NCBI GenBank assembly: GCA_015521565.1
Contig: WANX01000002.1
Coordinates: forward strand, 7,308-71,307
DNA length: 64,000 bases
From: Candidatus Hydrothermarchaeota archaeon
Lineage (GTDB): Archaea; Hydrothermarchaeota; Hydrothermarchaeia; Hydrothermarchaeales; BMS3B
Reading direction: 5' to 3'
In this document: in pieces, positions 3,897 to 61,299 of the stretch
How positions within the stretch are numbered: position 1 is the first letter of the stretch
How the letters are laid out: the number at the start of each line of letters is the position of its first letter
Notes under the pieces: model-generated
What the model saw: only the letters and a program-made list of their open reading frames with translations
Database searches by the model: none
What the model was told of the DNA's origin: nothing
Made by a program: the position numbers and the translations under genes

Positions 3897-4409
3897 ATGG
3901 AAAAGATAGAGCCCAATTACAGGGAGGTAAGCTCTGAGCTGGTGAAGGAGATAAAGCAGGAGCCCGGAGGTGAGTACATATCACGCTGTTACCAGTGCGG
4001 CACCTGTGCAGCCACCTGTGTGGTAAACCCCTTTAAAAACGACTTCAACCCCCGGAGAATAATCCGAATGGCTGTGCTGGGTGTGGAGAATGTGCTGGAG
4101 AGCATTGAACCCTGGTACTGTGCTGTTTGCTACCTCTGCACTGAACGATGCCCCAGAGATGTAAAGCCGGCTGCTGTACTCATGGCAATAAAGAATGTTG
4201 CAGCAAAGCACGGGAAAGTTCCAGCTGCCTTCAGGACGATAAATGAAAACATCGCCAGAATTGGCCGTCTTTTTGAGATAGATGACTTTACAAACTTTAT
4301 GCGGGAGGACATGGGACTTCCCCCAATAGAACCCCTTGAGGAGGAAGAGATAAGCAGACTCATCGCCGGAACAAGATTTGAAAAGCTCATGAAAGGTGAG
4401 GAGAGCTGA
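3897..4409 (+). CDS. hdrC: Heterodisulfide reductase subunit C-like (two 4Fe-4S ferredoxin motifs)
   Basis: CxxCxxCxxxCP motifs (CYQCGTCAATC and CAVCYLCTERCP). Located immediately upstream of hdrB. Confidence 0.75.
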   Translation: MEKIEPNYREVSSELVKEIKQEPGGEYISRCYQCGTCAATCVVNPFKNDFNPRRIIRMAVLGVENVLESIEPWYCAVCYLCTERCPRDVKPAAVLMAIKNVAAKHGKVPAAFRTINENIARIGRLFEIDDFTNFMREDMGLPPIEPLEEEEISRLIAGTRFEKLMKGEES

Positions 4410-4411
4410 AA

Positions 4412-5263
4412 ATGGGCGACGATTATCTCTACTTTCCGGGTTGTAACATACCCTACAGGGAGAACCAGTATGAACTTTCCGCCAGGGCAGTTGCCGAAAA
4501 GCTGGGCATAAAACTTCATGACAGACCTTTCAACTGCTGCGGGCTGAACACTGAGCCAGTAGATGAGTACGCCGCCCTGCTGTTCTCGGCCCGCAACATA
4601 GCGATAGCAGAAGAGGAGGGCATGAACCTGGTGGCCCTGTGCAATGGCTGCTACAAGACCCTCAGGGTGGCAAACAGAAAGCTGCACATGGATGAGAGAC
4701 TGCGCGCAAAAGTGAACGAGGGTCTGAGCAGAATAGGCAGAGAGGTAAAGGGTACGATTGAGGTTTACCACATGCTTGAGCTCATTTCTGACAGGATAAC
4801 AAAAGAGCACATGGTAAAAAAGGTCCAGGCCCGTATAGCGCCCTTCACCGGTTGCCATGCTGTACGTCCAAGCGAATATGTTGACTTCGGAGCTGCTGAG
4901 CGGCTGATGAAGATGATAAAGCTTGCAGGAGGCCGGGTGGTGAGGTACAGGGACATGGACAAGTGCTGCGGTGCTCCTCTTCTCGCACTGAGTGAGGAGA
5001 TGGGAATAAGTCTTGCGCGGCAGAGGATGCTGAGTATGAAGGAGCGGAAGGCCGAGCTTGCGGTCACCATGTGCCCCTTCTGTCAGGTCTCCCTGGACGG
5101 ACTGCAGGTGAAGGCCGAGCAGGAGTTCAAAGAAAGCTACGATATCCCCAGCCTCTATATTACCCAGCTTCTGGGACTTGCTATGGGTATAAAGCCTGAG
5201 AAGCTTGGAATAAACGAAAACAAGAAGGACCCCAGCGGAGTGCTCGCCCGGGTGCTCGTGTAG
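4412..5263 (+). CDS. hdrB: Heterodisulfide reductase subunit B-like (CCG-domain protein)
   Basis: Two Cys-rich CCG domains (FPGCNIP...NCCG...; FTGCHAV...KCCGAP...CPFC). Tightly linked to hdrC with a 2-bp gap. Confidence 0.8.
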   Translation: MGDDYLYFPGCNIPYRENQYELSARAVAEKLGIKLHDRPFNCCGLNTEPVDEYAALLFSARNIAIAEEEGMNLVALCNGCYKTLRVANRKLHMDERLRAKVNEGLSRIGREVKGTIEVYHMLELISDRITKEHMVKKVQARIAPFTGCHAVRPSEYVDFGAAERLMKMIKLAGGRVVRYRDMDKCCGAPLLALSEEMGISLARQRMLSMKERKAELAVTMCPFCQVSLDGLQVKAEQEFKESYDIPSLYITQLLGLAMGIKPEKLGINENKKDPSGVLARVLV

Positions 5264-8258: not shown

Positions 8259-8346
8259 GTCTATGCCTCCCGTGTAATATATTCTATGCAATTAATAAAT
8301 AACCTCCTGGCATGGTGGCGCAGGCCGGACTGCAGGGAACCTGTCC

Positions 8347-8356
8347 AAATAACATT
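8347..8356. repeat. Left copy of a 10-bp perfect direct repeat (aaataacatt) flanking the AT-rich island
   Basis: An identical decamer recurs at 10445-10454. The two copies bracket the low-GC two-gene insertion. Confidence 0.5.
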
Positions 8357-8502
8357 TTCTCACATCAAGTGGCTGTGATATAGCCTGAAAGTATAGGCGA
8401 AGAAGCTGTTTTGTTTAAGAACCGCTTCCTACCAGAGCTTTTCGTTTTCCTTTTCAGGCTCTTTCTGAAGTTGATGTTAAAGTTATTCAGAGCAATACAG
8501 AA

Positions 8503-8513
8503 GGTTTAAATAA
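8503..8513 (+). promoter_or_regulatory. TATA-box-like element (gtttaaataa) about 30 bp upstream of the ATPase start codon
   Basis: Archaeal promoter geometry (TATA at about -27/-30) relative to the ATG at 8538. Confidence 0.4.
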
Positions 8514-8537
8514 CAATGCTTTAGAAATAAGATTTTG

Positions 8538-9932
8538 ATGATAAGAGCTGACCTTAAGAAAGTTGTTATCAAGAACTTCAAAAGTCTTCACGACTGCGAA
8601 ATCGATATTAGAAAGCTAAATGTGGTAGTCGGTGCAAACGCATCCGGAAAATCAAATTTAGTGGAAGTATTTAAACTCTTGAAAAAAATCTATGCCGAAA
8701 AGGAAATTAATCCATTTTTTGAATGGTGGGGATACAATAACGTCGTATGGCAAAGAAAAGAAGAACTGCCCATAACAATCGGACTACTTTTTGAAATAGA
8801 AGGATATGAGGTTTATTTTGAAACTACATTTACCGGTATTGGAGGAAAATTTCAAATTTTGAGAGAACTCCTAGATATTAAAGGTTATCTGAAAATATTA
8901 AAAGAAGGTGAATGGTTAACAGTCAAGCATAATCCTGATTTTATAGAAGATATCATCAAAAATTTAAAGAGATATAAAGCAGATTATGGTCTAAAGACAA
9001 AATTAAGAAAGAGAAAAATAAAATTAATGGAAGAAAGAAAGATAAAGGTAGATTTTGATATAAAACTTTTAGACATACTCAGATTACCGATTTGGGTGGG
9101 CGTTGGATATAACCTTATTGATAGGGAGACTAATAAAAAGTTTATATTCTCGTATATTTTTATCCCCACTACTACATCGATTAATTATAAAAAATTTAAA
9201 GAAGAATTTGAAAGAGTTGCAATATTATGTCCACGAATAACCATAAAAAAGCCACGTTTCCGACCAGAAAGTTCACTTTATAGAATTGCTTCGAATAAAA
9301 TATTTTCTATTTTAACAGGAATGTCAATTTTACTGCCGCTTAATGTTCGCTTAATGAAAGACCCTCAAACTCTTAGAAAAGAGGAAACACTTAAAGAAGA
9401 TGGGAGTAATATTGCCAGCGTATTCCACAGTATTTATATCAATAAAGGAAAGATTCCTGAAGAGATCTACCATCCTCTATCAATGCTCTTCCCTGATATA
9501 GAAGTACGTCCACATATCACGGACGATGGAAGAGTCATGATTAAAATATGGGAAAAAGGTTTAGAGCTTCTACCTCCAAATATTTCTGATGGATTCTATA
9601 AAGTTTTGACGATTCTTACTGCCATCTACCTTAAACCGTCTTTATTAATAATAGATGAGATAGAAAATTCTCTACATCCAGAAACATTAGAACTTATTTT
9701 AGACACTATAAGGAAAAGCGATGTCAATGCAATAATAACAACTCATTCTCCTGTTGTTGTTGATATGGTCGATCTTAGCGAGTTAATTCTTATAGAAAAA
9801 GATTCAGAAGGGTCTAAATTCAGACGTATAAAAGACCCTGATAAAATAAAGGAGTTTTTAAGAGAAAAAGGCATAACGTTTAGTGAAGGATGGTTATATG
9901 GGGATCTATTTGGGACTGAGGAAAAAGTATGA
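8538..9932 (+). CDS. AAA_21/OLD-family ABC-type ATPase, the ATPase component of a predicted defence module
   Basis: N-terminal Walker A (VVGANASGKSN) in a NFKSL...I.I..LNVVVG context typical of SMC/RecF-like ABC ATPases. C-terminal Walker B plus D-loop (LLIIDEIENSLHP) and the AAA_21 hallmark H-loop (IITTHSP). About 30% GC against ~60% in the flanks. The real ATG is at 8538; the ORF caller used the TTG at 8535. Confidence 0.8.
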   Translation: MIRADLKKVVIKNFKSLHDCEIDIRKLNVVVGANASGKSNLVEVFKLLKKIYAEKEINPFFEWWGYNNVVWQRKEELPITIGLLFEIEGYEVYFETTFTGIGGKFQILRELLDIKGYLKILKEGEWLTVKHNPDFIEDIIKNLKRYKADYGLKTKLRKRKIKLMEERKIKVDFDIKLLDILRLPIWVGVGYNLIDRETNKKFIFSYIFIPTTTSINYKKFKEEFERVAILCPRITIKKPRFRPESSLYRIASNKIFSILTGMSILLPLNVRLMKDPQTLRKEETLKEDGSNIASVFHSIYINKGKIPEEIYHPLSMLFPDIEVRPHITDDGRVMIKIWEKGLELLPPNISDGFYKVLTILTAIYLKPSLLIIDEIENSLHPETLELILDTIRKSDVNAIITTHSPVVVDMVDLSELILIEKDSEGSKFRRIKDPDKIKEFLREKGITFSEGWLYGDLFGTEEKV

Positions 9933-10417
9933 AGATAAAAATGATTGTAGAAGATCACTATGGTGGAGAATTTTTAAAGAGGGTAATTAATAGACTTAAA
10001 ATAGATGGAATGGTATCCAGAAATCTTAGTGTTCCAAAACCAAAACATTTACCTGCTTTATGTAATTCAAAACTCACCAGAATTTTGAAAAAATTTGATA
10101 ATACTTGTGATAAAATTTTAGTTTTCTTAGACTCTGATGGCCCACAAAATCTTAATGATAGATACGCAAAAACAGAATGTCATATCCCAAATAATATGTC
10201 AACTCCAGTAGAGATAGTTCTGACAGATTATGAAATTGAAGAGTGGATATGTATCAGTTTAGATTTAAGGTGGTATTTAAAACCTTCAGAAGAACTTAAA
10301 AAGAAATTTGGATATGAAAAAAGCCATCTAATTTCATATAGTGATAAATTAGACTTTGACAGGTTGCTAAAAGACTGTCGCTCCTTCAAGTCTTTCCTTT
10401 CCGCTTTAAAAACATAA
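9929..10417 (+). CDS. Small Toprim-like (DUF4276-like) protein, the predicted nuclease partner of the ATPase
   Basis: Overlaps the ATPase stop (ATGA). Has a conserved acidic strand (KMIVEDHYGGE) and a DxD motif after a hydrophobic strand (ILVFLDSDGP), the minimal Toprim signature found in OLD, GajA and AriB nucleases. Confidence 0.55.
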   Translation: MKIKMIVEDHYGGEFLKRVINRLKIDGMVSRNLSVPKPKHLPALCNSKLTRILKKFDNTCDKILVFLDSDGPQNLNDRYAKTECHIPNNMSTPVEIVLTDYEIEEWICISLDLRWYLKPSEELKKKFGYEKSHLISYSDKLDFDRLLKDCRSFKSFLSALKT

Positions 10418-10444
10418 ATGTACTGTAAATAAGTGGTTGTCGAA

Positions 10445-10454
10445 AAATAACATT
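10445..10454. repeat. Right copy of the 10-bp direct repeat (aaataacatt) flanking the AT-rich island
   Basis: Identical to 8347-8356. Confidence 0.5.
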
Positions 10455-10779
10455 CCGGCTCTAAGCTCTATTCTCAGCCTCACCTGGAAGTTACATTGAG
10501 TGACAACTCCGCATTATGCTTCATGGCAAGCAACAATCGAAGCAACAGGCGTACAAGACCACTTTATTACTGGCAGAGCTACCACTCGAACATCTCTTCC
10601 TTCTCGTGCAAAAGAAGCAGCGGTAAATATATATGAAAGCAGAGATAAGCTTAGACTGCCGACAGAGGCTGAAAAGCGGATTGTGCCTGCACCCGGCGGC
10701 ACTGCTGTTGTGGTCAGACCTGAAGCTCTGGTCAGAGGCTGGCATACGGCAGCAAATACAATTTAGAGGTGAACTTATC

Positions 10780-15147: not shown

Positions 15148-15180
15148 AAAAAGGTTGGCTGGTGCCTACCACCAGCTTAT
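15148..15180. terminator. Hairpin (gctggtg-ccta-caccagc) with a flanking A/T run, lying between convergent genes
   Basis: 7-bp perfect inverted repeat immediately after the plus-strand stop at 15147. It overlaps the stop of the minus-strand small ORF and is followed by A7 on the plus strand, which is T7 for the minus-strand transcript. Confidence 0.4.
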
Positions 15181-15336
15181 AACCCTGTCCGCCTCGAATA
15201 TCTTGTCCACAAGTGCGGAGTAGTCCTTGTTCTTGTAGAGCTCAAAAACCTCCACGTCCGCCTCCTGCTTGTGGACCTCGATTATCTCCTTAACCCTGTC
15301 ACTTGGCTCGGACCGCAGAATCTCCAGAACCTTCAT
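15166..15336 (-). CDS. Small hypothetical protein (56 aa), last gene of the DsrE-like operon and not in the six-frame track
   Basis: ATG at 15336 down to TAG at 15166. Translation: MKVLEILRSEPSDRVKEIIEVHKQEADVEVFELYKNKDYSALVDKIFEADRVISWW. Lies 12 nt downstream of the preceding gene. Confidence 0.3.
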   Translation of the reverse strand: MKVLEILRSEPSDRVKEIIEVHKQEADVEVFELYKNKDYSALVDKIFEADRVISWW

Positions 15337-15348
15337 CCAAACCACCTC

Positions 15349-15654
15349 TCAGTAGGGTATTATGATATCATACTCCAGCATCTTCTTTGCCATCTCTTCG
15401 ACACTCATCTCATCGATGTACTCGCTCTTCTCCACATTCTTCGGGTTGTTGCTCACAACCAGGCCACCGTTGTCCTTTATCCACTCCAGGTTCTCTGCCA
15501 CGTCGCCACGCTCAACGTCGTACTCCACATCGATAATCATTAAACTCGGGTCGTTGCCGCCGAGCATCGTGCCCAGGGCGGAACGGCTCGCCTCCTCCTG
15601 CACATACCCATCCTCGCTGTTGCTGATAAATACCACAGAGACCATCATCCTCAC
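15349..15654 (-). CDS. DsrE/DsrF/TusB-like small protein (sulfur-relay fold)
   Basis: 101 aa. VVFISNSEDGY start typical of the DsrE/DsrF family. Tandem with a second family member. Confidence 0.5.
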   Translation of the reverse strand: MRMMVSVVFISNSEDGYVQEEASRSALGTMLGGNDPSLMIIDVEYDVERGDVAENLEWIKDNGGLVVSNNPKNVEKSEYIDEMSVEEMAKKMLEYDIIIPY

Positions 15655-15657
15655 CTC

Positions 15658-15981
15658 CTAAAACACCACATACCTGTCAACTTCCTTCATCATGTTGGCA
15701 TTGAAGTCCTGCGTGGTTTTCTGTATTCCCTCCGGCACTTCGTACTTCTCCGCCAGGCCGAGCTCTTCAAAGCTGTGCCAGCACATGCCCACAGTTGCTC
15801 CTGCCCTGACTATCTCCTTTGCATGCTCTGTGGGTACAAGCCTAACACCCGGTCCGGTGAAGAACACCTTTACCTCGTGTCCCTTCTCTATGGCCGCCTT
15901 AACCAGGCCCTCCACATCCTCGCCGTGCTTGTCTGTGCAAACGAATACCCCAAGCTTTCCCATGGTAATCACCGATAACAA
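15658..15981 (-). CDS. DsrE/TusD-like protein
   Basis: 107 aa. MGKLGVFVCTDKHG... with a conserved Cys in the first strand, typical of DsrE/TusD. Confidence 0.55.
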   Translation of the reverse strand: MLSVITMGKLGVFVCTDKHGEDVEGLVKAAIEKGHEVKVFFTGPGVRLVPTEHAKEIVRAGATVGMCWHSFEELGLAEKYEVPEGIQKTTQDFNANMMKEVDRYVVF

Positions 15982-16168
15982 CTATGTCCCCCTTTATTTA
16001 AACTTTATTTTCATAAAAACCGAATTCAATTCCCCCGGTGCTTTCGCCTGCACAGCCATCTGAGATAATTATCGTCACCCTGGTGGATGGGCATTCAATT
16101 TCTCTGGGACAGAGCACAGAGTAAAGTATTTATATAAATTTTAATTACACATGGTGTGAGGTGGTAAC

Positions 16169-16906
16169 ATGGCTTGGCTGGCAAACTTTGTTGTAAATGT
16201 GCTACCGTATATAACCTTCATAGTTTTTGTAGTGGGGGTTATATACCGCATCGCAGTGTGGTGGAGCAGACCATCGCCTGCGCCGATACCGGTGTTCCCG
16301 GGTCAGCGAACAGTCGGCAGCGCTATATCGAGGGTGCTGGCGGACGTGATAATCTTCCGCTCCCTGTGGCAGTTCCCCGGCAACCGCATCCTCTGGCTCG
16401 GTGCGTGGGTGTTCCATGTGAGCTTCCTCCTGATACTCCTGCGCCATCTGCGCTACTTCCTGGGTGAAGAGGCTGTGCCTGGCTGGGTTGCTGCGGTGCA
16501 GAGCCTCGGTATAGCAGCGGCGCTGGTGATAAGCGTGCCCCTTCTCTACCTGCTGATACGCAGAATTGTGCACGCCGACCTGAAGTTTATTTCCACGCCG
16601 GCGGACTACTTTGTGCTTCTTCTGATTCTCAGCGTGGTGCTCTCTGGCCTGTACGCAAAATACTTCTCAACACCCTTCGTGGTTGACGTGAAGTACGTGA
16701 TGCGCAGCCTCATGGCGCTGAAACCGGTGGATTTAAGCACTGTGACGCTTAACACGGCCTTCCTGGTGCACTTCTTCCTGGTGCAGGTGCTGGTGATGTA
16801 CATACCCTTCAGCAAGGTGATGCACCTGGGCGGGATCTTCTTTTCTCCCACACGCACCCACCACTTTGGTGGTGAGGCGCACACAAAGAAGCTGGAGGAG
16901 GCCTGA
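16169..16906 (+). CDS. HdrE/DsrM/NarI-like membrane di-heme cytochrome b subunit
   Basis: Five TM helices with His pairs placed as in the NarI fold. Immediately followed by the HdrD-like gene (stop and ATG separated by 2 nt). Confidence 0.7.
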   Translation: MAWLANFVVNVLPYITFIVFVVGVIYRIAVWWSRPSPAPIPVFPGQRTVGSAISRVLADVIIFRSLWQFPGNRILWLGAWVFHVSFLLILLRHLRYFLGEEAVPGWVAAVQSLGIAAALVISVPLLYLLIRRIVHADLKFISTPADYFVLLLILSVVLSGLYAKYFSTPFVVDVKYVMRSLMALKPVDLSTVTLNTAFLVHFFLVQVLVMYIPFSKVMHLGGIFFSPTRTHHFGGEAHTKKLEEA

Positions 16907-16908
16907 AA

Positions 16909-18669
16909 ATGGGAGAGCAGCTTGAGAAAATATACGATGTGGAGCTCAGGCCCGGGGCGGGTGAGGCTTACGTCTGCAACCTCACCAAGCCGGAATTTGC
17001 AGAGGCCATGAAGACCAACATTCCAAAGGAGCCCCTCCCGGATGACCAGATGGTGGAGGTGGCTCTCAAGCGTCTGGATGAGCTCCGCAAAGAGAGAAAG
17101 AGCATCCAGCTGTATCTGGACATATGTGTGCGCTGTGGCGCCTGCATGAAGCAGTGCCATTACTTTATTGGCACCGGCGACCCGAAAAACACGCCCGTGG
17201 GCAGGGCAGAGCTTCTGCGTAAGGTTTACAGGGCGCACTTCACCATAAGCGGCAAGCTCTTCGGCAAGCTGGTGGGTGCCGAGAAGCTCACCCCGGAGAT
17301 TTTGAAGAACGAGTGGTACAAGTACTTCTACCAGTGCTCAGAGTGCAGGCGCTGCTCTGTGTTCTGCCCCTACGGCATAGACCAGGCAGAGATTACCATG
17401 GCTGGCAGGGAAGTGCTCAACAGCGTGGGCCTGGCCACGAAGTACATCACCCAGGTAATTTCGCAGGTCTACAAGCACGGCAACAACCTGGGCATACCAG
17501 AGCCGGCGTTCAAGTACAACTGCCAGTTCCTGGAGGAGGAGATAAAAGAGAGCACGGGTGTTGATGTTAAGATACCCGTGGACAAGGAGAAGGCAGAGAT
17601 ACTCTACCTGCCCCCGAGTGCAGACCTCTTCACCAACACCGACACCATGATAGGCGTCGCCAAGGTGTTCCATGCAGTAGGTGCGGACTGGACGATGAGC
17701 ACCTACGCCAGCGAGGCCGCGAACTTCGGGCTCTTCTTCAGCTACGACGACCTCAAGGCGATTAACCTGCGCGTCGTCGAGACAGCCAAGAAGCTGGGGG
17801 CCAAGCTCGTCGTGTTTGGCGAGTGCGGCCACGCGTGGCGTGCTGCCAGGCAGTTCATGGAGGCGATGAATGGACCCCTCCCGTTTAAGTTCATGAACAT
17901 CCTGGAGTACACCGCAGAACAGATACGCAAGGGCAAGCTCAAAATCGACAAATCGAGAAACGACGACGTCGTTGTAACGCTGCACGACCCCTGCAACTAC
18001 GCCAGGGCGGGGGACCTGGTGGAGGAGACTCGCTTTGTGATAAAGTCGGTGTGCAACAACTTCGTGGAGATGGACGAAAGTGTTACCAAAGTTAAAACCT
18101 TCTGCTGCGGTGGCGGCGGAGGCCTGCTCACAGAGGAGATAATGGAGCTCAGGATGAAGGGCGGCCTGCCTCGTGCAACGGCGGTTAAAGAGGTGGTTGA
18201 GGCACATGGCGTCAACTATCTTGCCGCACCCTGTGCTATAGACAAAGCCCAGCTGCCGCTGGTAATGCAGCACTACGAAATACCCGTGCAGGTTGGTGGA
18301 ATCCACGACCTGGTGAGCAAGGCACTTATTCTTGAGGGTCAGGAGGAGTTCGAGGCAAAGAAGAAGGCCGAGGAAGAGGCTGCCAGGGCCGCGGCTGCGG
18401 CTGTGCCGGCGGTCTGCGGACTCTGTGATGCGGAGTTTGCCACCATGGACGAGTGCTGTGAGCATGCGGAGAAGGACCACAAGATATCCAAAGAGCAGTG
18501 CGACATGGTATGCGAGGCCAAAGAGGGAGCAGCCGCCGAGGCTGTGCCGGCGGTCTGCGGACTCTGCGATGCGGAGTTTGCCACCATGGACGAGTGCTGC
18601 GAGCATGCGGAGAAGGACCACAAGATATCCAAAGAGCAGTGCGACATGGTGTGTGAGTCGAAAAAATGA
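16909..18669 (+). CDS. HdrD/DsrK-like iron-sulfur CCG-domain subunit carrying a tandem Cys-rich C-terminal extension
   Basis: Two ferredoxin-like clusters (CVRCGACMKQC and CSECRRCSVFCP) and two CCG domains (HDPCNYA and TFCCGGGGG). The last ~95 aa are two near-identical 47-aa Cys-rich repeats. Confidence 0.75.
   Translation: MGEQLEKIYDVELRPGAGEAYVCNLTKPEFAEAMKTNIPKEPLPDDQMVEVALKRLDELRKERKSIQLYLDICVRCGACMKQCHYFIGTGDPKNTPVGRAELLRKVYRAHFTISGKLFGKLVGAEKLTPEILKNEWYKYFYQCSECRRCSVFCPYGIDQAEITMAGREVLNSVGLATKYITQVISQVYKHGNNLGIPEPAFKYNCQFLEEEIKESTGVDVKIPVDKEKAEILYLPPSADLFTNTDTMIGVAKVFHAVGADWTMSTYASEAANFGLFFSYDDLKAINLRVVETAKKLGAKLVVFGECGHAWRAARQFMEAMNGPLPFKFMNILEYTAEQIRKGKLKIDKSRNDDVVVTLHDPCNYARAGDLVEETRFVIKSVCNNFVEMDESVTKVKTFCCGGGGGLLTEEIMELRMKGGLPRATAVKEVVEAHGVNYLAAPCAIDKAQLPLVMQHYEIPVQVGGIHDLVSKALILEGQEEFEAKKKAEEEAARAAAAAVPAVCGLCDAEFATMDECCEHAEKDHKISKEQCDMVCEAKEGAAAEAVPAVCGLCDAEFATMDECCEHAEKDHKISKEQCDMVCESKK
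18400..18666 (+). repeat. 141-bp perfect-period tandem duplication (two copies) inside the 3' end of the hdrD-like gene
   Basis: Copy 1 is 18400-18540 and copy 2 is 18541-18666. Almost all differences between them are synonymous third-position changes. Confidence 0.9.
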
Positions 18670-19022
18670 AGGAGATCTCCCAGGCAACCTGGTTCACAGA
18701 GGTAACCTGTTCGAGTACACCCGTGGCGGTCCACTTCTATGCGGAGTGGTCACCTGCGTGCAGGGAGATAGAGTGCCTCCTTGAGAAGTACGAGCAGCGC
18801 TTAGCAGGAAAGATGAAGTTCGTGAAGATAGACATCGACGCCAACGAGGCGGTGCGCATCGCCAACCGGGTGATTGTACCACCCACCCTTATAATTTACT
18901 ACAAGGGGATACCCGTAAATGGCGTACCGGGGCCGCAGCCAGAGTGGGTGTACGAGAACAGGATACTTCGTGCCATCCGGCTCTACGAAAGGAGGCTGAA
19001 AAACATCCTAAGGAGGAGGTAA
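18666..19022 (+). CDS. Thioredoxin-fold protein with a degenerate active site (WSPAC)
   Basis: 118 aa. VAVHFYAEWSPACREI mirrors the thioredoxin WCGPC region but with a single Cys. Start codon overlaps the hdrD-like stop (ATGA). Confidence 0.5.
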   Translation: MKEISQATWFTEVTCSSTPVAVHFYAEWSPACREIECLLEKYEQRLAGKMKFVKIDIDANEAVRIANRVIVPPTLIIYYKGIPVNGVPGPQPEWVYENRILRAIRLYERRLKNILRRR

Positions 19023-19025
19023 ACC

Positions 19026-19553
19026 ATGAAGAGGTTGTTGATATTCATTGCGGCGCTGAGCCTAATGGTGCTCAGCGGATGTGTGGCTCCGCCTGAGAAG
19101 CCGGTTAAGGATTCCACGCTCAAGGAGCACCCCTCGCCAAAGGTGGACATGACCTACTGGAAAGCAAACCACGGCAAAGAGATTGAGGCTGGTAAGGCGA
19201 GCGAGGAGTCGTGCATTAACTGCCACCAGCCTGAGAACTTCTGCAACAAGTGCCACGCCTATGTGGGCGTGAGGCAGATAGAGGTCGGCACACCGCCACC
19301 GCCGGCGGCTGCAGAGGCTCCGAAGGAGGAGAAACCCGCGGAGACACAGCCTGAGGCGGAGGCCAAACCGGTGCTGCACGGCGAGGGCAGATGCGACCAG
19401 TGTCATGACGCCCCCACCCTGGAGGACATGCGCACAGGCTTGCACAAGCAGGCCTTTGAGAAGTTTGAGGGGCACAAGAACTTCTGCAGCGAGTGCCACA
19501 ACGTCCAGGAGACCTGCACCAAGTGCCACGCCCTGCCGGCGATAATGCAGTAG
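19026..19553 (+). CDS. Lipoprotein pentaheme c-type cytochrome
   Basis: Signal peptide with lipobox (LMVLSGC). Five CxxCH motifs: CINCH, CNKCH, CDQCH, CSECH, CTKCH. Pro/Ala/Glu-rich linker. Confidence 0.8.
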   Translation: MKRLLIFIAALSLMVLSGCVAPPEKPVKDSTLKEHPSPKVDMTYWKANHGKEIEAGKASEESCINCHQPENFCNKCHAYVGVRQIEVGTPPPPAAAEAPKEEKPAETQPEAEAKPVLHGEGRCDQCHDAPTLEDMRTGLHKQAFEKFEGHKNFCSECHNVQETCTKCHALPAIMQ

Positions 19554-34341: not shown

Positions 34342-35286
34342 GTGGAAATGCGAGAAAGGCTCAATCTGTTCCTCAGGGTTACCGAAGTTTTTGAGAATCA
34401 CGGCTACAGGCTTTCCGAGGCGTGTGTGCTTAGCAACTCCTGCTTCGACTTCTTCGCCCGCAGGGGAGAGCGTCTGCTTCTTGTGAAGGTGCTGGGAAAC
34501 ATAGACAGCCTGACCGAGACGCAGGCGGGCGAGATATCGCGGGTCGCCGCCACTCTGGAAGCTGCGCCCGTGGTGGTGGGCAGACGCAGGGGCGTGGAGG
34601 AGCTCCAGCATGGTGTGGTCTACCTCAGGCACGGCATAGCCTGCGTAAGCGAGCTCACGCTTGAGCAGGCGCTTGCCGGCGAGCACCCAGCGCTGCTGTG
34701 CTACCGTGGTGGCTACTACGCAAGCGTAGATGGCGAGCAGCTTCGCAGGCTGAGGCAGGCCCACGGGCTGAGCAGACCCGCGCTTGCAAAGCTGGTGGGA
34801 GTCTCCGCCAAGGCGATTTACAAGTACGAGGAAGGCGAGGCCGGCGCAACCTTTGAAACTGCGCTCAAGCTGGAGCGCGTTCTCGGCGAACCCCTGGTAA
34901 AGCCGGTGGATATCTTCCGCGTGCCGGGCGCAGGGCAAAGCCCCGCTCCGCCTGCGAGGCTGAAGAGGCTGTGCAGGCTGGGGTTTGAGGTGCTTCCCGT
35001 GAGGAAGGCGCCCTTCTCGGCGCTTACCAGGGGAGAGGGCAGGGTGCTCCTCACAAAGCTTGCAAAATGCCGCACCCGCGATGTGGAGGAGCGTGCGAGG
35101 CTGCTGAGGAGCATCTCCGCTACTGTGGAGAAGCGCGCCTTTATCCTGCTCGGCTCCGGCAGGGCGAGGAACATCTCCGGCATAGCGGCGGTTAGCCTGC
35201 GCGAGGTGGAGGAGATAGCCCGCGCGAGGGAGCTGCTGGAGCTTATAGAGGCAAGGGCTACGCCAGGCCAAGATGCCGGCGGATGA
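34342..35286 (+). CDS. Archaeal putative transcriptional regulator with a central XRE-type HTH (COG1395-like)
   Basis: HTH segment LRQAHGLSRPALAKLVGVSAKAIYKYEEGE flanked by archaea-specific N- and C-terminal domains. Confidence 0.65.
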   Translation: MEMRERLNLFLRVTEVFENHGYRLSEACVLSNSCFDFFARRGERLLLVKVLGNIDSLTETQAGEISRVAATLEAAPVVVGRRRGVEELQHGVVYLRHGIACVSELTLEQALAGEHPALLCYRGGYYASVDGEQLRRLRQAHGLSRPALAKLVGVSAKAIYKYEEGEAGATFETALKLERVLGEPLVKPVDIFRVPGAGQSPAPPARLKRLCRLGFEVLPVRKAPFSALTRGEGRVLLTKLAKCRTRDVEERARLLRSISATVEKRAFILLGSGRARNISGIAAVSLREVEEIARARELLELIEARATPGQDAGG

Positions 35287-36283
35287 GCCTCTTGTCCTCT
35301 TCGCTCGGGAGGAAGGGGAAGTTCCTGAGCACCTCACCCGGGCGCTCGTTGCCGTAGGGGCGGTTGCACGCCACCTCGCCGTCTCTGCCCCTGCAGCCGG
35401 AGGTCATGAAGGCCTTCCCCTCTTCTATCACCTCCTCCAGCACCTGCCTGCTCACCCCGAAGTCCACAACCTCGCCGCGCGTGGAGAAGCGCATGTCCTC
35501 GTAGCGCGCCAGGTTGCGGTGGATCAGGTACCGCGCGAGCTGAACCCTGCGGTACTGCTCTATGCCCGGCCTTTCATGCTCCTGCATCACAGAACCCGGC
35601 TCGGGGTAGAAGGCGAATAGGTGAGCCTCCGCGCCCGCGTCGTAGGCGCGCTGCACAGCGGCGAGCATCTCCCGCTCGCTCTCGCCCAGGCCGACGATAA
35701 GGTGGACGCTGACGTTGTACCTTCCAAAGCTCTCCACCGCCCAGTCGATTACGCGCCAGTAGTGCTCCCAGCGGTGGGGGCCCTGCATGCCGCGCCCTCG
35801 GAGGGCATCGAAGAGCTCAGGGGTAGCGCAGTCCACGGCGATGCCGCACATCTCAGCGCCCGCGCGTTTGAGCTCAGCAAGCATCTCCTTGTTCTTCATG
35901 AGCGTGGGTGAGATTAACGTTGAGATAGCCAGAGGCGTCTCCTCGCGGAAGCGCCTAACCAGGGTGAGCGTATCCTGATAGGCGCGGGGGTGCGTGACCA
36001 TTGAGATGCACACCCTCTCCAGGTGCTTGCCGTAGGTGTTCGCCCTGGCGATAACCTCGTCCGTCGCGAAGGTGGGCCAGTCCACGCGTATGAAGGTCCT
36101 GCCGCTCAGGGGCACGCGCTTCCTGCTCAGCCCGCAGTAGGCGCAGCTCGCCCTGCAGCCCTCGCTGTAGGTGAGCAGCAGGTTTAGAGCCTTGAGCCTT
36201 GCCCCGCGGTAGAACCTGCCCGGGAATAGCTTCAGCGTAATAGCAGCCGCCGTGGAGGTCTGCACATACTCCGGGCTCTCCAC
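35258..36283 (-). CDS. Radical SAM protein, candidate lipoyl synthase component (LipS1/LipS2- or RadSAM-type)
   Basis: CxxxCxxC cluster CRASCAYC. Last gene of the radical-SAM / LplA / GcvH-like operon. Confidence 0.7.
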   Translation of the reverse strand: MESPEYVQTSTAAAITLKLFPGRFYRGARLKALNLLLTYSEGCRASCAYCGLSRKRVPLSGRTFIRVDWPTFATDEVIARANTYGKHLERVCISMVTHPRAYQDTLTLVRRFREETPLAISTLISPTLMKNKEMLAELKRAGAEMCGIAVDCATPELFDALRGRGMQGPHRWEHYWRVIDWAVESFGRYNVSVHLIVGLGESEREMLAAVQRAYDAGAEAHLFAFYPEPGSVMQEHERPGIEQYRRVQLARYLIHRNLARYEDMRFSTRGEVVDFGVSRQVLEEVIEEGKAFMTSGCRGRDGEVACNRPYGNERPGEVLRNFPFLPSEEDKRLIRRHLGLA

Positions 36284-36735
36284 TACTCTTCCTCCAGCCT
36301 TGCTATCTCCTGCTCAATCCACGCCTTAATCTCCTCGCTCTCGCTCAGAAGCTCCTCGTGGCTGAGCTCCGCCTCGCTGCTTGGCTTCACCCTCACTATC
36401 CAGGCCTCGTAGGGTGACTGGTTCACCAGCCTGGGGTTCTCCATCACCTCGCGGTTAACCTCAACCACCCTCCCCGCCACGGGTGAGTAGAGCTTGCTCA
36501 CAAACTTCGCGGACTCAATGTTTGCGAAGGCCTCGCCCCTCTCGAGCCTCTCGGCGGTGACGGAGAGGTAGTTCAGGTATCCTGCGCTCTCGGCGAGGAA
36601 GGCGTCTATGCCGAGAAGCAGGGTGTCGCCCTCGCGCTTTACCCAGATGTGGGCATTCCTCCCTCTATAGTAAAGCCTGTCCAGGGGAAACTCGTACTCG
36701 CCAACCTTCAAAACCTGCTCTGCCTTGAGCTCCAT
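36283..36735 (-). CDS. Glycine-cleavage H-protein-like lipoyl-carrier protein (GcvH/LbpA-like)
   Basis: 150 aa with H-protein topology and a candidate lipoyl-lysine in IESAKFVSKLYSPVAGRV. Confidence 0.7.
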   Translation of the reverse strand: MELKAEQVLKVGEYEFPLDRLYYRGRNAHIWVKREGDTLLLGIDAFLAESAGYLNYLSVTAERLERGEAFANIESAKFVSKLYSPVAGRVVEVNREVMENPRLVNQSPYEAWIVRVKPSSEAELSHEELLSESEEIKAWIEQEIARLEEE

Positions 36736-37734
36736 TCAGCTACCTCCTGCAATGCTGCGGGCCGCCTCCTCAATGCGGGGGCTATACTCTAAGCTCTCGG
36801 CAAGGATATTTAAGATTTTCTCGTAGCTCGCCTCCCTGCCGAGAAGGCGCTCCTCGAGCTTCCTCACCCTCCTTTTACCTCTCCAGGCTCTTACCCATCT
36901 CAGCCTGCCCTCACTGCGCTCAGCGATTATCTCCACCTCACCAGCCCTTGCGAAGGCCAGGTAGCACCCCTCGGCGATTTTCAGCTCCCGCGCTCGCCTG
37001 CCGGGCATGAAGAGCCACTCTCTGGAGAGGTACTTCCCCTCCAGGCGGTGCATCTCCCGTGCTATCTCTGGGGTCAGCCTCGCCTCCTCGAGTTCCCCGA
37101 AGAGCTCCTCGAAGTTCCCTATCAGTGCGCGCTTAACCTCCTGCGGGGAGAAGTCGCCCAGCTGCTCCCTCAGCGTGGTCAGCCTCTCCCTCATCAGCCT
37201 CTCCGCCCTCGCCCGCATCACCTCACTTGGCAGGCGGAGCACCCTGCTCATGAGCGCGCGGTCAAAATCGAAGAGGATGCTGCCGCTCAGCACCTTGCAC
37301 TCGCCTATTAAGCCTGCACCGTTGCCCGAGATCTTCCTCCCGTCCACCACAAGGTCGTTCGCGGGTTTGTAGCGCGCCTCCAGGCCAAGCTCGCGGTAGG
37401 TTGCGATAACCGGCGAGAGAAACTTCCTGTAGAAGGTTTCATTTCTTACAGGCGTGTGCTCAGCATCGCGGCGGACAATCACGTGGTAGAAGAGCTGCTC
37501 CCTGTCCAGCAGAACTATGCCCCCGCCTATCTCCCGCCTGAAGTAGGGTATGCCCCGCCTCCTCATGAACCCCAGGTCGAGCTCCCCGGGGGAGTTGAAT
37601 AATCCCAGGCAGGCGTAGCACTCGCGGGTGCGCTGCACCACCACCGCCTCAACCCCGAGCCTCGCAAGCGCGTGGTAGATGAGCTGCGTTTCCTTCCAGG
37701 ACATAAAGCCCAAGTCGAAGAGTTTCACCGACAT
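36736..37734 (-). CDS. Lipoate--protein ligase family protein (LplA-like)
   Basis: BPL/LplA catalytic-domain architecture. Conserved Lys-containing GRKISGNGAG region, analogous to the LplA GRKISGSA motif. Confidence 0.7.
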   Translation of the reverse strand: MSVKLFDLGFMSWKETQLIYHALARLGVEAVVVQRTRECYACLGLFNSPGELDLGFMRRRGIPYFRREIGGGIVLLDREQLFYHVIVRRDAEHTPVRNETFYRKFLSPVIATYRELGLEARYKPANDLVVDGRKISGNGAGLIGECKVLSGSILFDFDRALMSRVLRLPSEVMRARAERLMRERLTTLREQLGDFSPQEVKRALIGNFEELFGELEEARLTPEIAREMHRLEGKYLSREWLFMPGRRARELKIAEGCYLAFARAGEVEIIAERSEGRLRWVRAWRGKRRVRKLEERLLGREASYEKILNILAESLEYSPRIEEAARSIAGGS

Positions 37735-37737
37735 GGC

Positions 37738-38697
37738 TCACACCAGTGTGCAGCAGAGCTCAGAGAACCTCAGCTCAAGTCCGCGCTTCTCCGCATATTC
37801 AAGCGCCTCCTCGGTGGGATAGGCGATGGTGTTTACCCCGGCGTCTATGGCGAGGGCCTCAATCTCCGCCTTGCTCCCCGCCGGCTTGGCGCAGCCCAGG
37901 TTCAGCTTTGCAGAGGGGTTCAAAATCCTGGCAACCGCCACAAGCCTTGCAACCTCCTCCGCAGGCGGTGGCTCAACGCCTTCGAAGGGCGTGCCGTAGA
38001 GCGGGGAGAGCACCACCACCACAATCACCTCGGGCTCAGCTCTTGTAATTATGCGTAGCGCCTCGTACTCGCCGCGAAACTCGCCGCGGTATAAGCCGGC
38101 GACGATGTGCGGGGCTATGCTCAAGCCTGCACGCCTTAAATTCTCAAGCGCCCTCGCGTAGTCAGCTGGCGCCCTGTCCAGGTGGTACACCTCCCTTATA
38201 GTCGCCTCGTCGCCTATCACGTCCAGGAGCACCTGCTCCACGCCAGCCCGCCTGAGCGCGAGCGCATCCTCTTCGCTCACAAGGCCTGAGTGCACTATAA
38301 CCCTGAGCCCCATCTCCCTGAGCTTCCGCATCGCTGGCAAAAAGTCGCGCAGGGGCACGCGTCCATCTCTGGTTGCGCCCCCGCTTATGAGCACTCCCCT
38401 TGCACCCCGCTCCGCAAGCCTTCTGCCCAGAGCTACCAGCTCCTCCCCGCTCGCCACGTGGTGCATGCTCTCCAGAAGCTTTCCCCTGCAGTGCTCGCAG
38501 CGAAGCTCGCAGGCTTTGCCTGTGACGCTGACGTTCACAAAGCTTCCGGGAGAGTTTCTGAAGTTCGCCACCTCATAGCGCTTGGCGCTGGGTGCGCTCA
38601 CATAGAGCACGTCCTCAAAGTTCTTCTTCCTGAGCTCCCACGCTGTGCGCAGAAGCTCCTCCAGCGGCTTATCCCTGAGCTTCTCAATCGCACGCAT
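37738..38697 (-). CDS. Radical SAM protein, second candidate lipoyl synthase component
   Basis: CxxxCxxC cluster CELRCEHC. First gene of the operon. Confidence 0.7.
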   Translation of the reverse strand: MRAIEKLRDKPLEELLRTAWELRKKNFEDVLYVSAPSAKRYEVANFRNSPGSFVNVSVTGKACELRCEHCRGKLLESMHHVASGEELVALGRRLAERGARGVLISGGATRDGRVPLRDFLPAMRKLREMGLRVIVHSGLVSEEDALALRRAGVEQVLLDVIGDEATIREVYHLDRAPADYARALENLRRAGLSIAPHIVAGLYRGEFRGEYEALRIITRAEPEVIVVVVLSPLYGTPFEGVEPPPAEEVARLVAVARILNPSAKLNLGCAKPAGSKAEIEALAIDAGVNTIAYPTEEALEYAEKRGLELRFSELCCTLV

Positions 38698-59935: not shown

Positions 59936-60180
59936 CTTTATATACCCGTCTGATTTAACTTAATCAGGATGAAGGACAGGCTACGCACAGCGATGCACGC
60001 GCTTGCGCTGCTTGCCGTTATCGGCGGCATATACCGCGCTGCTGGAGAGGTGGACGACGCCTTTGCGGCTCTCTACATGATTCAGTACCTGCTGTGGGCT
60101 ATTCTGTTCGAGGTTGTGGCACTGAACCTCAAGGATGACCGCAAGTTTTGATGCTCCTGTTAAGATTTTCCAAGCACTGG

Positions 60181-61299
60181 ATGCGACTGCTCAGCAAGCT
60201 CGCCGATAGCGGAGTTTCCACCATTGCGGAGAGGGTGCTCGCGGGAGAGGAGCTCTCAAAGCGCGAGGCGTGTGCGCTTATGGAGGAGGGAGACCTCTAC
60301 CTGCTCGGCTTCCTCGCCGACGAGCTGCGCCGCCGTCAGGTGGGCGACCTCGTGAGCTTCGTGGTCAACCGCCAGATAAACTACACCAATGCCTGCGTTG
60401 CGGGGTGCAAATTCTGTGCCTTCTACCGCCCGCCGAGAAGCGGAGAGGCCTACACCTTAAGCGTGGAGGAGGTGGTGGAGAAGGCTTCGCAGGCGGCGCG
60501 TGAGGGTGCTACCGAACTGCACATCGTGGGCGCCCACAACCCCGAGCTGCCCTTCGAGTACTACGAGAGCATGCTGCGCGAGCTCAGAAGGCGCTTTCCA
60601 GAACTCCACCTCAAGGCGTTCACCGCCACGGAGATAGCCTTCTTCTCCAGGAATTTCGGGATGAGCATACGCGAGGTGCTGCTTCGCCTTAAGGAGGCGG
60701 GCTTGAGGAGCATGCCAGGCGGCGGGGCGGAGATACTGGACGAGGAGCTCAGAAGGCAGCTGTGCCCGGGCAAAGCTTCTGCGAGGGAGTGGCTGCGTGT
60801 GATGCGCACCGCCCACGAGCTCGGGATAAAAAGCAACGCAACCATGCTCTTCGGTCACGTGGAAAGCCTGCGCCACCGCGTGGAGCACATGCTAAAGCTG
60901 AGGGAGCTCCAGAAGGAGACGCGCGGCTTTATGTCATTCATCCCTCTGGTCTATCATCCCGAGCACACACCGCTTAAGCGCTCTATGCCGGAGCTGATGC
61001 GCACTTCCGCAGTGGATGTGCTGCGCACTATCGCTGTTGCCAGAATTCTGCTGGGCGAGAGCTTCCGCAACATCCGCGCCTACTGGGTGATGCTGGGCAA
61101 GAAGCTCGCCCAGGTGGCGCTGCACTACGGCGCCAACGACCTGGATGGCACCGTGGTTGAAGAGCGCGTGGCCCATGCGGCCGGGGCAGAGACGGAGCAG
61201 TTTGCAACAAGGGAGGAGCTTGTAGCGCTGATACGCGAAGCCGGGCGAGTGCCTGTGCAGCGCTCCACTGACTACAGGATAATCCAGAGGTGGGATTAG
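60181..61299 (+). CDS. Radical SAM enzyme of the MqnC/MqnE (CofH-like) family, futalosine menaquinone pathway
   Basis: NYTNACVAGCKFCAF radical-SAM cluster in the family-typical context. The start is uncertain (60148 or 60181). Confidence 0.75.
   Translation: MRLLSKLADSGVSTIAERVLAGEELSKREACALMEEGDLYLLGFLADELRRRQVGDLVSFVVNRQINYTNACVAGCKFCAFYRPPRSGEAYTLSVEEVVEKASQAAREGATELHIVGAHNPELPFEYYESMLRELRRRFPELHLKAFTATEIAFFSRNFGMSIREVLLRLKEAGLRSMPGGGAEILDEELRRQLCPGKASAREWLRVMRTAHELGIKSNATMLFGHVESLRHRVEHMLKLRELQKETRGFMSFIPLVYHPEHTPLKRSMPELMRTSAVDVLRTIAVARILLGESFRNIRAYWVMLGKKLAQVALHYGANDLDGTVVEERVAHAAGAETEQFATREELVALIREAGRVPVQRSTDYRIIQRWD

Follow-up and report, generated by a model that had tools for sequence, protein, structure and literature searches.

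A dsrMK operon of a Candidatus Pyrohabitans archaeon, with a thioredoxin-like protein and a lipid-anchored cytochrome c as probable accessory proteins

Results

The operon and its overall identity

The DNA analysed here (hereafter the window) is a stretch of 64,000 nucleotides from contig WANX01000002.1 of a Candidatus (Ca.) Hydrothermarchaeota archaeon, and it contains an operon of four genes on the + strand. The first two encode DsrM (16169-16906; 245 aa), a NarI-type di-haem cytochrome b with five transmembrane (TM) helices, and DsrK (16909-18669; 586 aa), the catalytic CCG iron-sulfur subunit. They are followed by a gene for a thioredoxin-fold protein with the degenerate active site WSPAC (18666-19022; 118 aa, predicted to be cytoplasmic) and by a gene for a lipobox-anchored pentahaem cytochrome c (19026-19553; 175 aa). 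Neighbouring genes are separated by 2 nt at the first junction, overlap in ATGA at the second and are separated by 3 nt at the third. An earlier sequence-only reading of this DNA had described the same gene content and tight coupling, and both were confirmed when the open reading frames (ORFs) and junctions were re-read.

The basic identification of the locus as DsrMK is ordinary. On the evidence presented below, this is probably the DsrMK complex of an archaeon of the genus Ca. Pyrohabitans (Hydrothermarchaeota), accompanied by two accessory proteins that are specific to the lineage and flanked by the genes of a sulfur-relay trio. Beyond what had been noticed before, we found that this trio is divergent and DsrEFH-like, that dsrK contains a 135-nt duplication, that DsrK ends in zinc-finger-like repeats, that the cytochrome has a 2+3 haem arrangement, and that orthologues of the thioredoxin-like protein have lost cysteines.

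DsrK and DsrM

Searches with profile hidden Markov models (HMMs) assigned the CCG subunit to DsrK. It scored 539.1 bits on NCBIfam NF045796 DsrK (cutoff 400), compared with 199.9 bits on TmcB, far short of the TmcB cutoff of 735, and 180.9 bits on HmcF. The 'DsrMK-like' label of the sequence-only reading was borne out. Two ferredoxin-type motifs (CxxCxxCxxxC) start at residues 73 (CVRCGACMKQC) and 143 (CSECRRCSVFC). DsrK has a single CCG motif (residues 362-445), in which the final ligand position reads C-A-I-D (Asp445); no second CCG motif was found in the protein. The sequence GECGH occupies residues 304-308 (Cys306, His308). Residues Cys306, His308 and Asp445 correspond to C329, H331 and D500 of A. 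fulgidus DsrK. The non-ligating Cys and His of GECGH and an Asp replacing the last CCG cysteine are features of DsrK (Barbosa 2024; Yin 2026 preprint). Judged by these motifs, the subunit carries the full signature of the catalytic subunit of a DsrC-trisulfide reductase; the reductase activity itself would follow by homology.

HMM scores and motifs placed the CCG subunit with DsrK/HmeD and spoke against the other candidates, namely HdrD, TmcB and two dehydrogenase types (succinate and glycerol-3-phosphate). Kinship with the dehydrogenase types had been named beforehand as the outcome that would speak against a Dsr-like identity; among the matches of the CCG subunit, such models occurred only at E ~1e-3 or were absent. 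The window DsrK is 55-58% identical to bacterial DsrK, and identical copies are present on several contigs from metagenome-assembled genomes (MAGs) and metagenomes. Its nearest named relatives (88-97% identity) are from Ca. Pyrohabitans (JdFR-16, JdFR-17) and other Ca. Hydrothermarchaeota MAGs. A PDB sequence search with DsrK gave no match at E <=1e-3. In a rough neighbour-joining tree built on context-labelled DsrKs, those linked to the thioredoxin-like gene and the cytochrome formed one clade, all with CxxD.

DsrM matched Pfam Nitrate_red_gam (E 2e-14), and a PDB sequence search with this protein gave no match at E <=1. Its two His pairs, His83/His93 (H-x9-H) and His201/His219 (H-x17-H), have the spacing of the haem ligands of NarI and accompany five hydrophobic helices. 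In proteins of the DsrM-2 type, the quinol site is occluded by two conserved Arg residues and a helix-breaking loop insertion in transmembrane helix (TMH) 3; DsrM-1 is NarI-like (Yin 2026). This signature could only be approximated, by comparison with the DsrM proteins of two other loci, one of the DsrMKJOP type (L014) and one linked to dsrAB (L020). The window DsrM lacks the 8-residue insertion in the TMH2-3 region that is carried by the L014 protein. It shares with L014 an Arg before the distal His ligand (R92-H93), where the L020 protein has G-H.

The pentahaem cytochrome c

The cytochrome has the lipobox L-S-G-C19, of which G18-C19 is invariant among homologues. Its CxxCH motifs start at residues 63, 73, 123, 154 and 164. 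Exactly five other His residues (35, 49, 118, 140 and 150) are kept across the homologues, which would suffice for bis-His ligation of all five haems. In the six frames of the 64-kb window, CxxCH occurs in just three stop-to-stop segments with a length of 60 aa or more: this ORF, with five motifs, and two others with one each. Because none of the other segments of this length contains a second motif, the observation is real and not a product of chance.

In the protein, a Pro/Ala/Glu linker joins a di-haem module (residues ~20-85) to a tri-haem module (~113-175). The di-haem module occurs alone, as a lipoprotein of 94-105 aa, in five other loci (L018, L024, L025, L010 and L011), and fused to the tri-haem module in the window, L022, L023 and the JdFR MAGs. 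Since each MAG of the species-level collection shows a single locus, the versions with two and with five haems are orthologues from different species and not paralogues. Conversely, the tri-haem module also stands free as a lipoprotein, for example as P0130 of the MAG to which the window belongs, on contig JBPNPY010000008.1 (L021, 8001-8390), where it is 95% identical to the module in the window, and it is also a domain of larger surface proteins. The tri-haem module hence appears to be an add-on that was fused in some species only. P0130 adjoins a radical-SAM/ThiS gene pair and lies near a resolvase. L006 has a second, identical copy of the tri-haem module (9071-9322) immediately after the operon, where the contig ends; this copy may be a repeat-induced assembly effect.

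An HMM search with the cytochrome against 1.84 billion representative proteins retrieved 66 clusters at E <=1e-3, one of which had the five-haem architecture. The di-haem module aligned with the N-terminal part of DsrJ in L014, and the L014 protein itself matches NCBIfam DsrJ NF038038 at E 3e-10. L014 is a bona fide dsrMKJOP operon from another Hydrothermarchaeota MAG, in which NCBIfam recognises DsrK, DsrO, DsrM, DsrP and DsrJ. By this alignment, the di-haem module is related to DsrJ. A four-haem relative, consisting of two di-haem modules, follows dsrC-dsrM-dsrK on an unrelated low-GC contig with tusA and dsrEFH and without dsrOP. Because this version sits beside DsrMK in a second lineage, the cytochrome family looks like a recurrent partner of DsrMK. 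A PDB profile search with the cytochrome found only tri-haem c7, at a non-significant E of ~0.5. The gene after the cytochrome encodes a convergent ABC-2 permease, and neither DsrO nor DsrP was found in the 64-kb window.

The thioredoxin-like protein

The product of the third gene scored 55.7 bits on Pfam Thioredoxin PF00085 (cutoff 23.5) and stayed under the cutoff of TIGR01068 (55.3 vs 96.8). The cis-Pro loop (PPT) is kept, and the active site reads WSPAC in place of the redox-active WCGPC. Six of the ten orthologues have WSPxC and the other four WSPxS; ordinary thioredoxins within the same alignment carry WCGPC. No cysteine is universally kept among the orthologues, and both active-site cysteines are gone in four. 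Neither a signal peptide nor a TM segment was detected in the protein. Taken together, the lack of a universally conserved Cys and of a signal peptide or TM segment argues that it cannot be a dithiol oxidoreductase or a maturation factor of the CcmG type, and a CcmG-like role was rejected for want of a CxxC motif as well.

This family is very small, with ~10 clusters at 90% identity, after which the scores drop sharply to thioredoxins with WCGPC. All orthologues for which the context was read adjoin dsrM-dsrK and a small lipobox cytochrome, and the thioredoxin-like gene and the cytochrome gene adjoin each other in either order. On the most economical reading, the protein would play a structural or docking part in the complex, at its cytoplasmic face. 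E. coli YbbN/CnoX is an SxxC thioredoxin-fold protein without oxidoreductase activity. The window protein resembles it in having a thioredoxin fold in which the nucleophilic first Cys is replaced by Ser. In contrast to YbbN/CnoX, it has no TPR domain, and some of its orthologues lack both cysteines. A chaperone-like role for the window protein would be speculation.

Zinc-finger-like modules at the C-terminus of DsrK

The C-terminal end of DsrK (residues ~497-586) consists of two tandem C2H2 zinc-finger-like modules of ~47 aa. They are encoded on the + strand at 18388-18522 and 18529-18663 by a 135-nt direct repeat, the two copies of which are 93% identical. A direct-repeat search picked up the 141-nt two-copy repeat, which was missed by Tandem Repeats Finder. 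Each module reads CGLCDAEFATMDECCEHAEKDH, with the spacing C-x2-C-x3-F-x5-C-x2-H-x4-H followed by C-x3-C. All nine module copies compared, from DsrK and DsrP, keep the residues C, C, F, H and H, and the module fits the C2H2 pattern C-x2-4-C-x12-H-x3-5-H with a conserved aromatic residue.

Sequence searches with the tail remained below significance. Pfam zf-C2H2_2 scored 18.4 bits (cutoff 26.9; E 0.0027), and the top matches of a PDB profile search were C2H2 fingers, all at E >=0.05. In the AlphaFold2 (AF2) model, each module has a predicted local distance difference test (pLDDT) score above 90 and forms a strand-strand-helix (beta-beta-alpha) unit plus a further strand. The Foldseek list for this model consists almost entirely of C2H2 fingers, with 2LVH, the archaeal-virus protein AFV1p06, at the top (TMt 0.80; root-mean-square deviation 1.1 A); no Foldseek match reached E 1e-3. 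The tail modules are thus likely to adopt a C2H2-like metal-binding fold, as predicted by the model. At a guess, they may be metal-stabilised interaction modules with a role in protein docking.

The module is not restricted to this operon. Close relatives have one or two copies, and L018 and L024 have none. It also occurs on the dsrAB-linked DsrK of L020 (9480-9731) and in L014 (12300-12618), where the DsrMKJOP-type DsrK has one copy and the membrane subunit DsrP has two at its C-terminus. Overall, 14 of the 120 top DsrK clusters have the module, spread over three clades. A contig binned as 'Deferribacteres bacterium' (L015, 1-90) ends in sequence that is 87% identical to the DsrK module, which may reflect mis-binning or a separate carrier.

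Conservation of the module and pathway context

The combination of dsrM-dsrK, the thioredoxin-like gene and a lipobox cytochrome was present in all seven independent locus types examined (the window, L009/L012, L018, L022, L023, L024 and L025/L010/L011). DsrEFH-like genes of the type II-like kind, the canonical-like kind or both adjoin the module in most loci; none was found next to it in L010, L011, L023 and L025. A dsrC gene lies near the module in L018 and L024, and near a related cytochrome and dsrMK in L026.

Hydrothermarchaeota are described as carboxydotrophs with dsrAB, dsrC, 'dsrMK', menaquinone genes and many c-type cytochromes, which have up to 67 haem motifs (Carr 2019; Kato 2019). 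The sequence-only reading had stressed the rarity of archaeal c-type cytochromes; in this phylum they are not unusual. For the genus, dsrA/dsrB are listed in JdFR-17 and dsrA and dsrC in JdFR-16 (Carr 2019 Table S9). The same table gives dsrK, narI, dsrF, dsrE and dsrH as consecutive genes, and in JdFR-16 this is the sole listed dsrK. Going by neighbouring IMG gene ids, neither the thioredoxin-like gene nor the cytochrome gene was found among the entries of the Carr 2019 tables that were covered. Cytochrome c maturation, the lack of which the sequence-only reading had named as a second outcome that would speak against it, is represented in the genus by CcmC, CcmE and CcdA/DsbD in JdFR-16/JdFR-17 (Carr 2019 Table S11).

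At 60148-63226, the window contains three menaquinone genes of the futalosine pathway, in which two radical SAM genes of the CofH/MqnC type flank VitK2_biosynth (MqnA/D-type). Because of these genes, menaquinone and not methanophenazine is the expected quinone.

The DsrEFH-like trio and the intergenic region

Upstream of dsrM, three small genes run divergently on the - strand. They encode a DsrE-like sulfur carrier of 107 aa with a TTG start (15658-15981), a DsrF-like protein of 99 aa (15349-15648) and a DsrH-like protein of 56 aa (15166-15336), which are 40-48%, 46-48% and 58-60% identical to the products of the first, middle and third genes, respectively, of trios in L018/L024. For the DsrE-like gene, a shorter version of 101 aa from an internal start was called in sister contigs. 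The DsrE-like protein matched Pfam DsrE (28.9 bits vs cutoff 22.7; E 1.4e-6), and its Cys67 (TTG numbering) is invariant among the sequences compared. A PDB profile search with this protein gave 2HY5 DsrE only at a non-significant E of 0.45. The DsrF-like protein had no match in Pfam and the DsrH-like protein none in Pfam or NCBIfam.

The orthologous trios of L018/L024 stand between a split YeeE/YedE transporter and dsrMK, in L018 together with TusA genes. This layout is the 'YTD' or DsrEFH type II arrangement, and archaeal type II genes are noted to co-localise with dsrMK (Plum-Jensen 2026). On the basis of synteny, its conserved Cys and, as indirect support, its orthology (40-60% identity) to the trios beside YeeE/YedE, we regard the window trio as DsrEFH type II-like. 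It agrees with DsrEFH type II (Plum-Jensen 2026) in consisting of three small syntenic genes with a conserved Cys in the DsrE-like member. It differs in that the window has no yeeE/yedE or tusA nearby, that the trio is divergent and that the DsrH-like member has only 56 aa.

In JdFR-16, JdFR-17 and L008, a further dsrH-dsrE-dsrF set of canonical appearance separates the type II-like trio from dsrM (compare L009, 5907-7260); L022 has the canonical-looking set only. The window and L007 show a gap of ~185 bp where these relatives hold the set, which by this comparison appears to have been lost in the window. As the set is present in JdFR-16/JdFR-17/L008 and absent in the window and L007, the two kinds of DsrEFH have been gained or lost between close relatives.

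The divergent intergenic region (15982-16168; 187 bp) contains two A/T-rich boxes, candidate archaeal TATA/BRE elements that may function as promoters, and a GGTG/GAGGTGG stretch precedes the ATG of dsrM. A scan for sigma-70 promoters and intrinsic terminators found nothing above shuffled expectation; these are bacterial models, which are not applicable to an archaeon.

Other features of the window

The sequence-only reading had linked the operon to a soluble HdrCB pair. An HdrCB-like pair is indeed present (3897-4409 and 4412-5263); the link was rejected, as the pair lies 11 kb from the operon and was not found to co-occur with the module in the other loci. The pair lacks HdrA, and both members remained under the family cutoffs (HdrC-like 111 bits vs 160; HdrB-like 202 vs 345). 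The second-best match of the HdrB-like protein was an SdhE-type menaquinol:fumarate reductase anchor (133 bits), and a response-regulator gene follows the pair.

Three further features were noticed. A 2,280-bp insertion of low GC content (~36%) at 8337-10616 is absent from the sister contigs L001, L005 and L017, which are otherwise 99-100% identical. Within it lie genes for an AAA_21/AbiEii-like ATPase (8535-9932) and for a protein of 162 aa (9929-10417), and these match the PADLOC candidate defence system HEC-01 (A subunit, E 4e-36; B subunit, E 3e-5). On the - strand at 35258-38697, genes for a radical SAM protein, a GcvH-like protein, an LplA/B-type lipoate ligase and another radical SAM protein resemble a LipS1/LipS2-type lipoate assembly cluster. 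Also on the - strand, at 49312-53655, lies the gene for a 1,447-aa protein with eight NosD/beta-helix stretches and with fibronectin-type and purple-acid-phosphatase N-terminal domains, probably a surface protein.

Discussion

Proposed function of the complex

By homology with the A. fulgidus enzyme, electrons would pass from the membrane through the two haems of DsrM to the non-cubane cluster of DsrK, where the DsrC trisulfide would be reduced and sulfide released. Menaquinol would be the likely electron donor, since menaquinone-synthesis genes are found in the window. For DsrMKJOP, it has been argued that quinol is oxidised at DsrP and that the electrons reach DsrM via DsrO and DsrJ (Yin 2026); in the A. 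fulgidus complex, DsrJ contacts the outer face of DsrM and hands electrons to it. In complexes that consist of DsrMK only, DsrM itself oxidises the quinol (Yin 2026). Anatomy and synteny suggest that the lipid-anchored cytochrome of the window would lie on the outer face of the membrane, with its di-haem module docking on DsrM as DsrJ does. Given that there is no DsrO or DsrP, it would therefore provide a second, quinone-independent electron port to redox proteins of the outer face. The DsrEFH-like neighbours could hand sulfur to DsrC at the DsrMK complex, in which case the module may run in either direction. The sequence-only reading is supported in its general idea of a thiol/(tri)sulfide module that is linked to quinone and has a multihaem port outside the cytoplasm.

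Several points weigh against this assignment. That the thioredoxin-like protein and the cytochrome are physically joined to DsrMK is suggested only by their synteny and translational coupling. NCBIfam DsrM was the best-scoring family for the window DsrM (144.7 bits) and its cutoff of 300 was not reached; the DsrMKJOP-type DsrM of L014 likewise falls under this cutoff, at 274. The residues compared above suggest a mixed signature for an open versus an occluded quinol site. The quinol-donor step is uncertain because the window DsrM is without the TMH3 insertion yet has the Arg before the distal His. The cytochrome missed the cutoff of NCBIfam DsrJ NF038038 (20.9 bits vs 100; E 3.4e-4), matching it over residues 45-83 only. 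It has five haems where DsrJ has three, and a lipobox instead of a TM anchor. Its only Cys outside CxxCH is that of the lipobox, so that none is free to ligate a His/Cys haem. An AF2 model built for this protein from a 16-sequence alignment was too poor for use, with a pLDDT of 55 and a predicted TM-score (pTM) of 0.28. Furthermore, dsrAB, dsrC and ccm were not found in the 64-kb window, so membership of the pathway rests on sister MAGs and the literature. The operating direction is a point of its own, as the DsrEFH neighbours make oxidative running a serious possibility.

Alternative explanations

The strongest alternative, which could also be a complement and is possible if somewhat unlikely, is that the module is mainly oxidative and serves sulfur oxidation or disproportionation. 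Sulfane sulfur would then be delivered by the DsrEFH-like proteins to DsrC, DsrK would take two electrons while the trisulfide is formed, and DsrM would pass them to menaquinone or, via the cytochrome c, to acceptors on the outer face, for instance nitrate reductase or extracellular multihaem cytochromes. DsrEFH-type genes do flank most versions of the module, the L018 and L024 clusters include YeeE/YedE and L018 includes TusA genes. Such an arrangement has been proposed as a marker of sulfur oxidation alongside a reductive DsrAB (Plum-Jensen 2026), and sulfide-oxidising cable bacteria use DsrMKJ without DsrOP (Plum-Jensen 2026; Yin 2026). However, archaeal Dsr pathways have so far been held to be solely reductive (Diao 2023), the DsrAB of Hydrothermarchaeota are of reductive or early-branching types, and the four loci without DsrEFH-like genes beside the module (L010, L011, L023 and L025) do not fit a sulfur-delivery scheme of this kind.

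A quinone-independent conduit like Tmc or Hmc appears unlikely. In such a conduit, electrons would enter via the outer cytochrome c only and cross the b haems to the CCG subunit, and the thioredoxin-like protein would take the place of TmcD. The four-part layout is the same as that of TmcABCD, with which the architecture is shared (Barbosa 2024), and TmcC and TmcB were the second-best NCBIfam matches of DsrM and DsrK. These scores are nevertheless well below the corresponding Dsr scores and far from the cutoffs (TmcC 38.2 bits vs 240; TmcB 200 vs 735). The evidence from DsrM is similarly divided: the Arg before the distal His ligand is found as well in the occluded DsrM-2 of L014, but the TMH3 loop insertion that accompanies occlusion of the quinol site in the DsrMKJOP-type DsrM is lacking, and menaquinone-synthesis genes are present. 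The operon is otherwise like TmcABCD/HmcABCDEF of Desulfovibrio in combining an outer multihaem cytochrome c, a NarI-like cytochrome b and a single-CCG cytoplasmic protein with T/GECGH, and like Tmc in having a small fourth cytoplasmic subunit. In contrast to Tmc/Hmc, it scores far under the Tmc and Hmc HMM cutoffs, its cytochrome is by sequence not of the c3 type, and its fourth protein has a thioredoxin fold where TmcD is Trp-rich.

It is improbable that the thioredoxin-like protein and the cytochrome only share a transcript with DsrMK without being subunits, for instance as a maturation aid and a cytochrome that belongs to another pathway. The two genes always adjoin each other, in either order, and there is general precedent in CcmG and ResA, thioredoxin-fold proteins that act in cytochrome c maturation. 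Yet the thioredoxin-like protein has no signal peptide or TM segment. It has no CxxC either, and four orthologues lack Cys at both positions, so that it could not reduce apocytochrome. Moreover, all orthologues found adjoin dsrMK, the family is very small, and the tri-haem paralogue P0130 has no thioredoxin-like neighbour. An HdrED-type reductase of the CoM-S-S-CoB heterodisulfide linked to methanophenazine, an option of the sequence-only reading to which the homology of DsrMK with HdrED and the HdrCB-like pair at 3.9-5.3 kb might lend support, is effectively refuted by the motif and HMM results, i.e. one CCG motif and not two, the DsrK signatures GECGH and CxxD, and a DsrK HMM score above the cutoff, as well as by menaquinone rather than phenazine genes and a host phylum of dsrAB/dsrC-carrying carboxydotrophs that are not methanogens.

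Comparison with known Dsr systems

The assignment to a DsrMK complex with accessory proteins can be compared with systems that have been studied experimentally. DsrMK/DsrMKJOP of A. fulgidus is a menadiol:DsrC-trisulfide oxidoreductase (Barbosa 2024 PNAS; Yin 2026 bioRxiv cryo-EM). The window operon shares with it a di-haem DsrM and a DsrK that bears GECGH, a pair of [4Fe-4S] motifs and a single CCG motif in which Asp takes the final position. An outer-face c-type cytochrome in the operon and menaquinone as the likely quinone are further features in common with DsrMKJOP. In contrast, the window has no DsrO/DsrP, and its lipoprotein cytochrome with 2+3 haems has no candidate for a His/Cys haem, where DsrJ has three haems of which one is His/Cys. 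The short DsrM (245 aa), the thioredoxin-like gene and the C2H2-like DsrK tails also set the window apart.

Cable bacteria offer a second comparison (Plum-Jensen 2026; Yin 2026). Their DsrMKJ likewise has a periplasmic cytochrome, no DsrOP, a link with DsrEFH type II and a need for an electron partner on the outer face. In contrast, the window is from an archaeal host, its cytochrome is only distantly DsrJ-like, and no thioredoxin-like partner has been reported in cable bacteria. The DsrM of cable bacteria is described as resembling the reductive DsrM-2; it was set beside the window DsrM by this description only.

Parts of our results are already published, namely the occurrence of DsrMK in Hydrothermarchaeota, next to dsrEFH as judged from gene numbers, the c-type cytochromes and ccm genes of the phylum, and the association of archaeal dsrEFH type II with dsrMK. 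Three additions to the known DsrMK, the thioredoxin-like protein, the two-module cytochrome and the DsrK tails, are apparently undescribed. A degenerate thioredoxin-like partner, a modular lipoprotein cytochrome partner or zinc-finger-like tails of DsrK/DsrP were not found in the literature searched, the coverage of which was incomplete. Searches that combined DsrK or dsrMK with 'zinc finger' or 'thioredoxin' gave nothing relevant, and the thioredoxin of Hocking 2015 is unconnected to dsrMK.

A more far-reaching proposal is tentative and, in our estimate, unlikely to hold in full. According to this proposal, the module would represent a previously unrecognised 'DsrMK-plus-cytochrome' grade, in which a lipid-anchored di-haem cytochrome, likely an ancestor or sibling of DsrJ, sits on a NarI-like DsrM without DsrOP. 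DsrC-trisulfide chemistry would thereby be wired to outer-face or extracellular multihaem electron transfer and be reversible with the DsrEFH relay, and the grade would be intermediate between DsrMK and DsrMKJOP. The redox-dead thioredoxin fold and the C2H2 fingers would be docking parts for DsrC or the sulfur relay.

Significance

Dissimilatory sulfite/sulfate respiration ends with DsrMK(JOP), its energy-coupling step. How DsrJOP joined an ancestral DsrMK, and what the function of DsrJ is, are open questions (Neukirchen 2023; Barbosa 2024; Yin 2026). Hydrothermarchaeota branch near the base of Dsr trees, and a conserved DsrMK with a DsrJ-related cytochrome and without DsrOP offers a concrete candidate for an intermediate stage, one that parallels the unexplained DsrMKJ of cable bacteria. 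The DsrEFH-type genes that accompany the module are relevant to the question of whether Dsr pathways in archaea run in the reductive direction only. Lastly, a well-studied complex may gain new, testable parts in the thioredoxin-like protein and in the C2H2-like tails, which are carried by both DsrK and DsrP.

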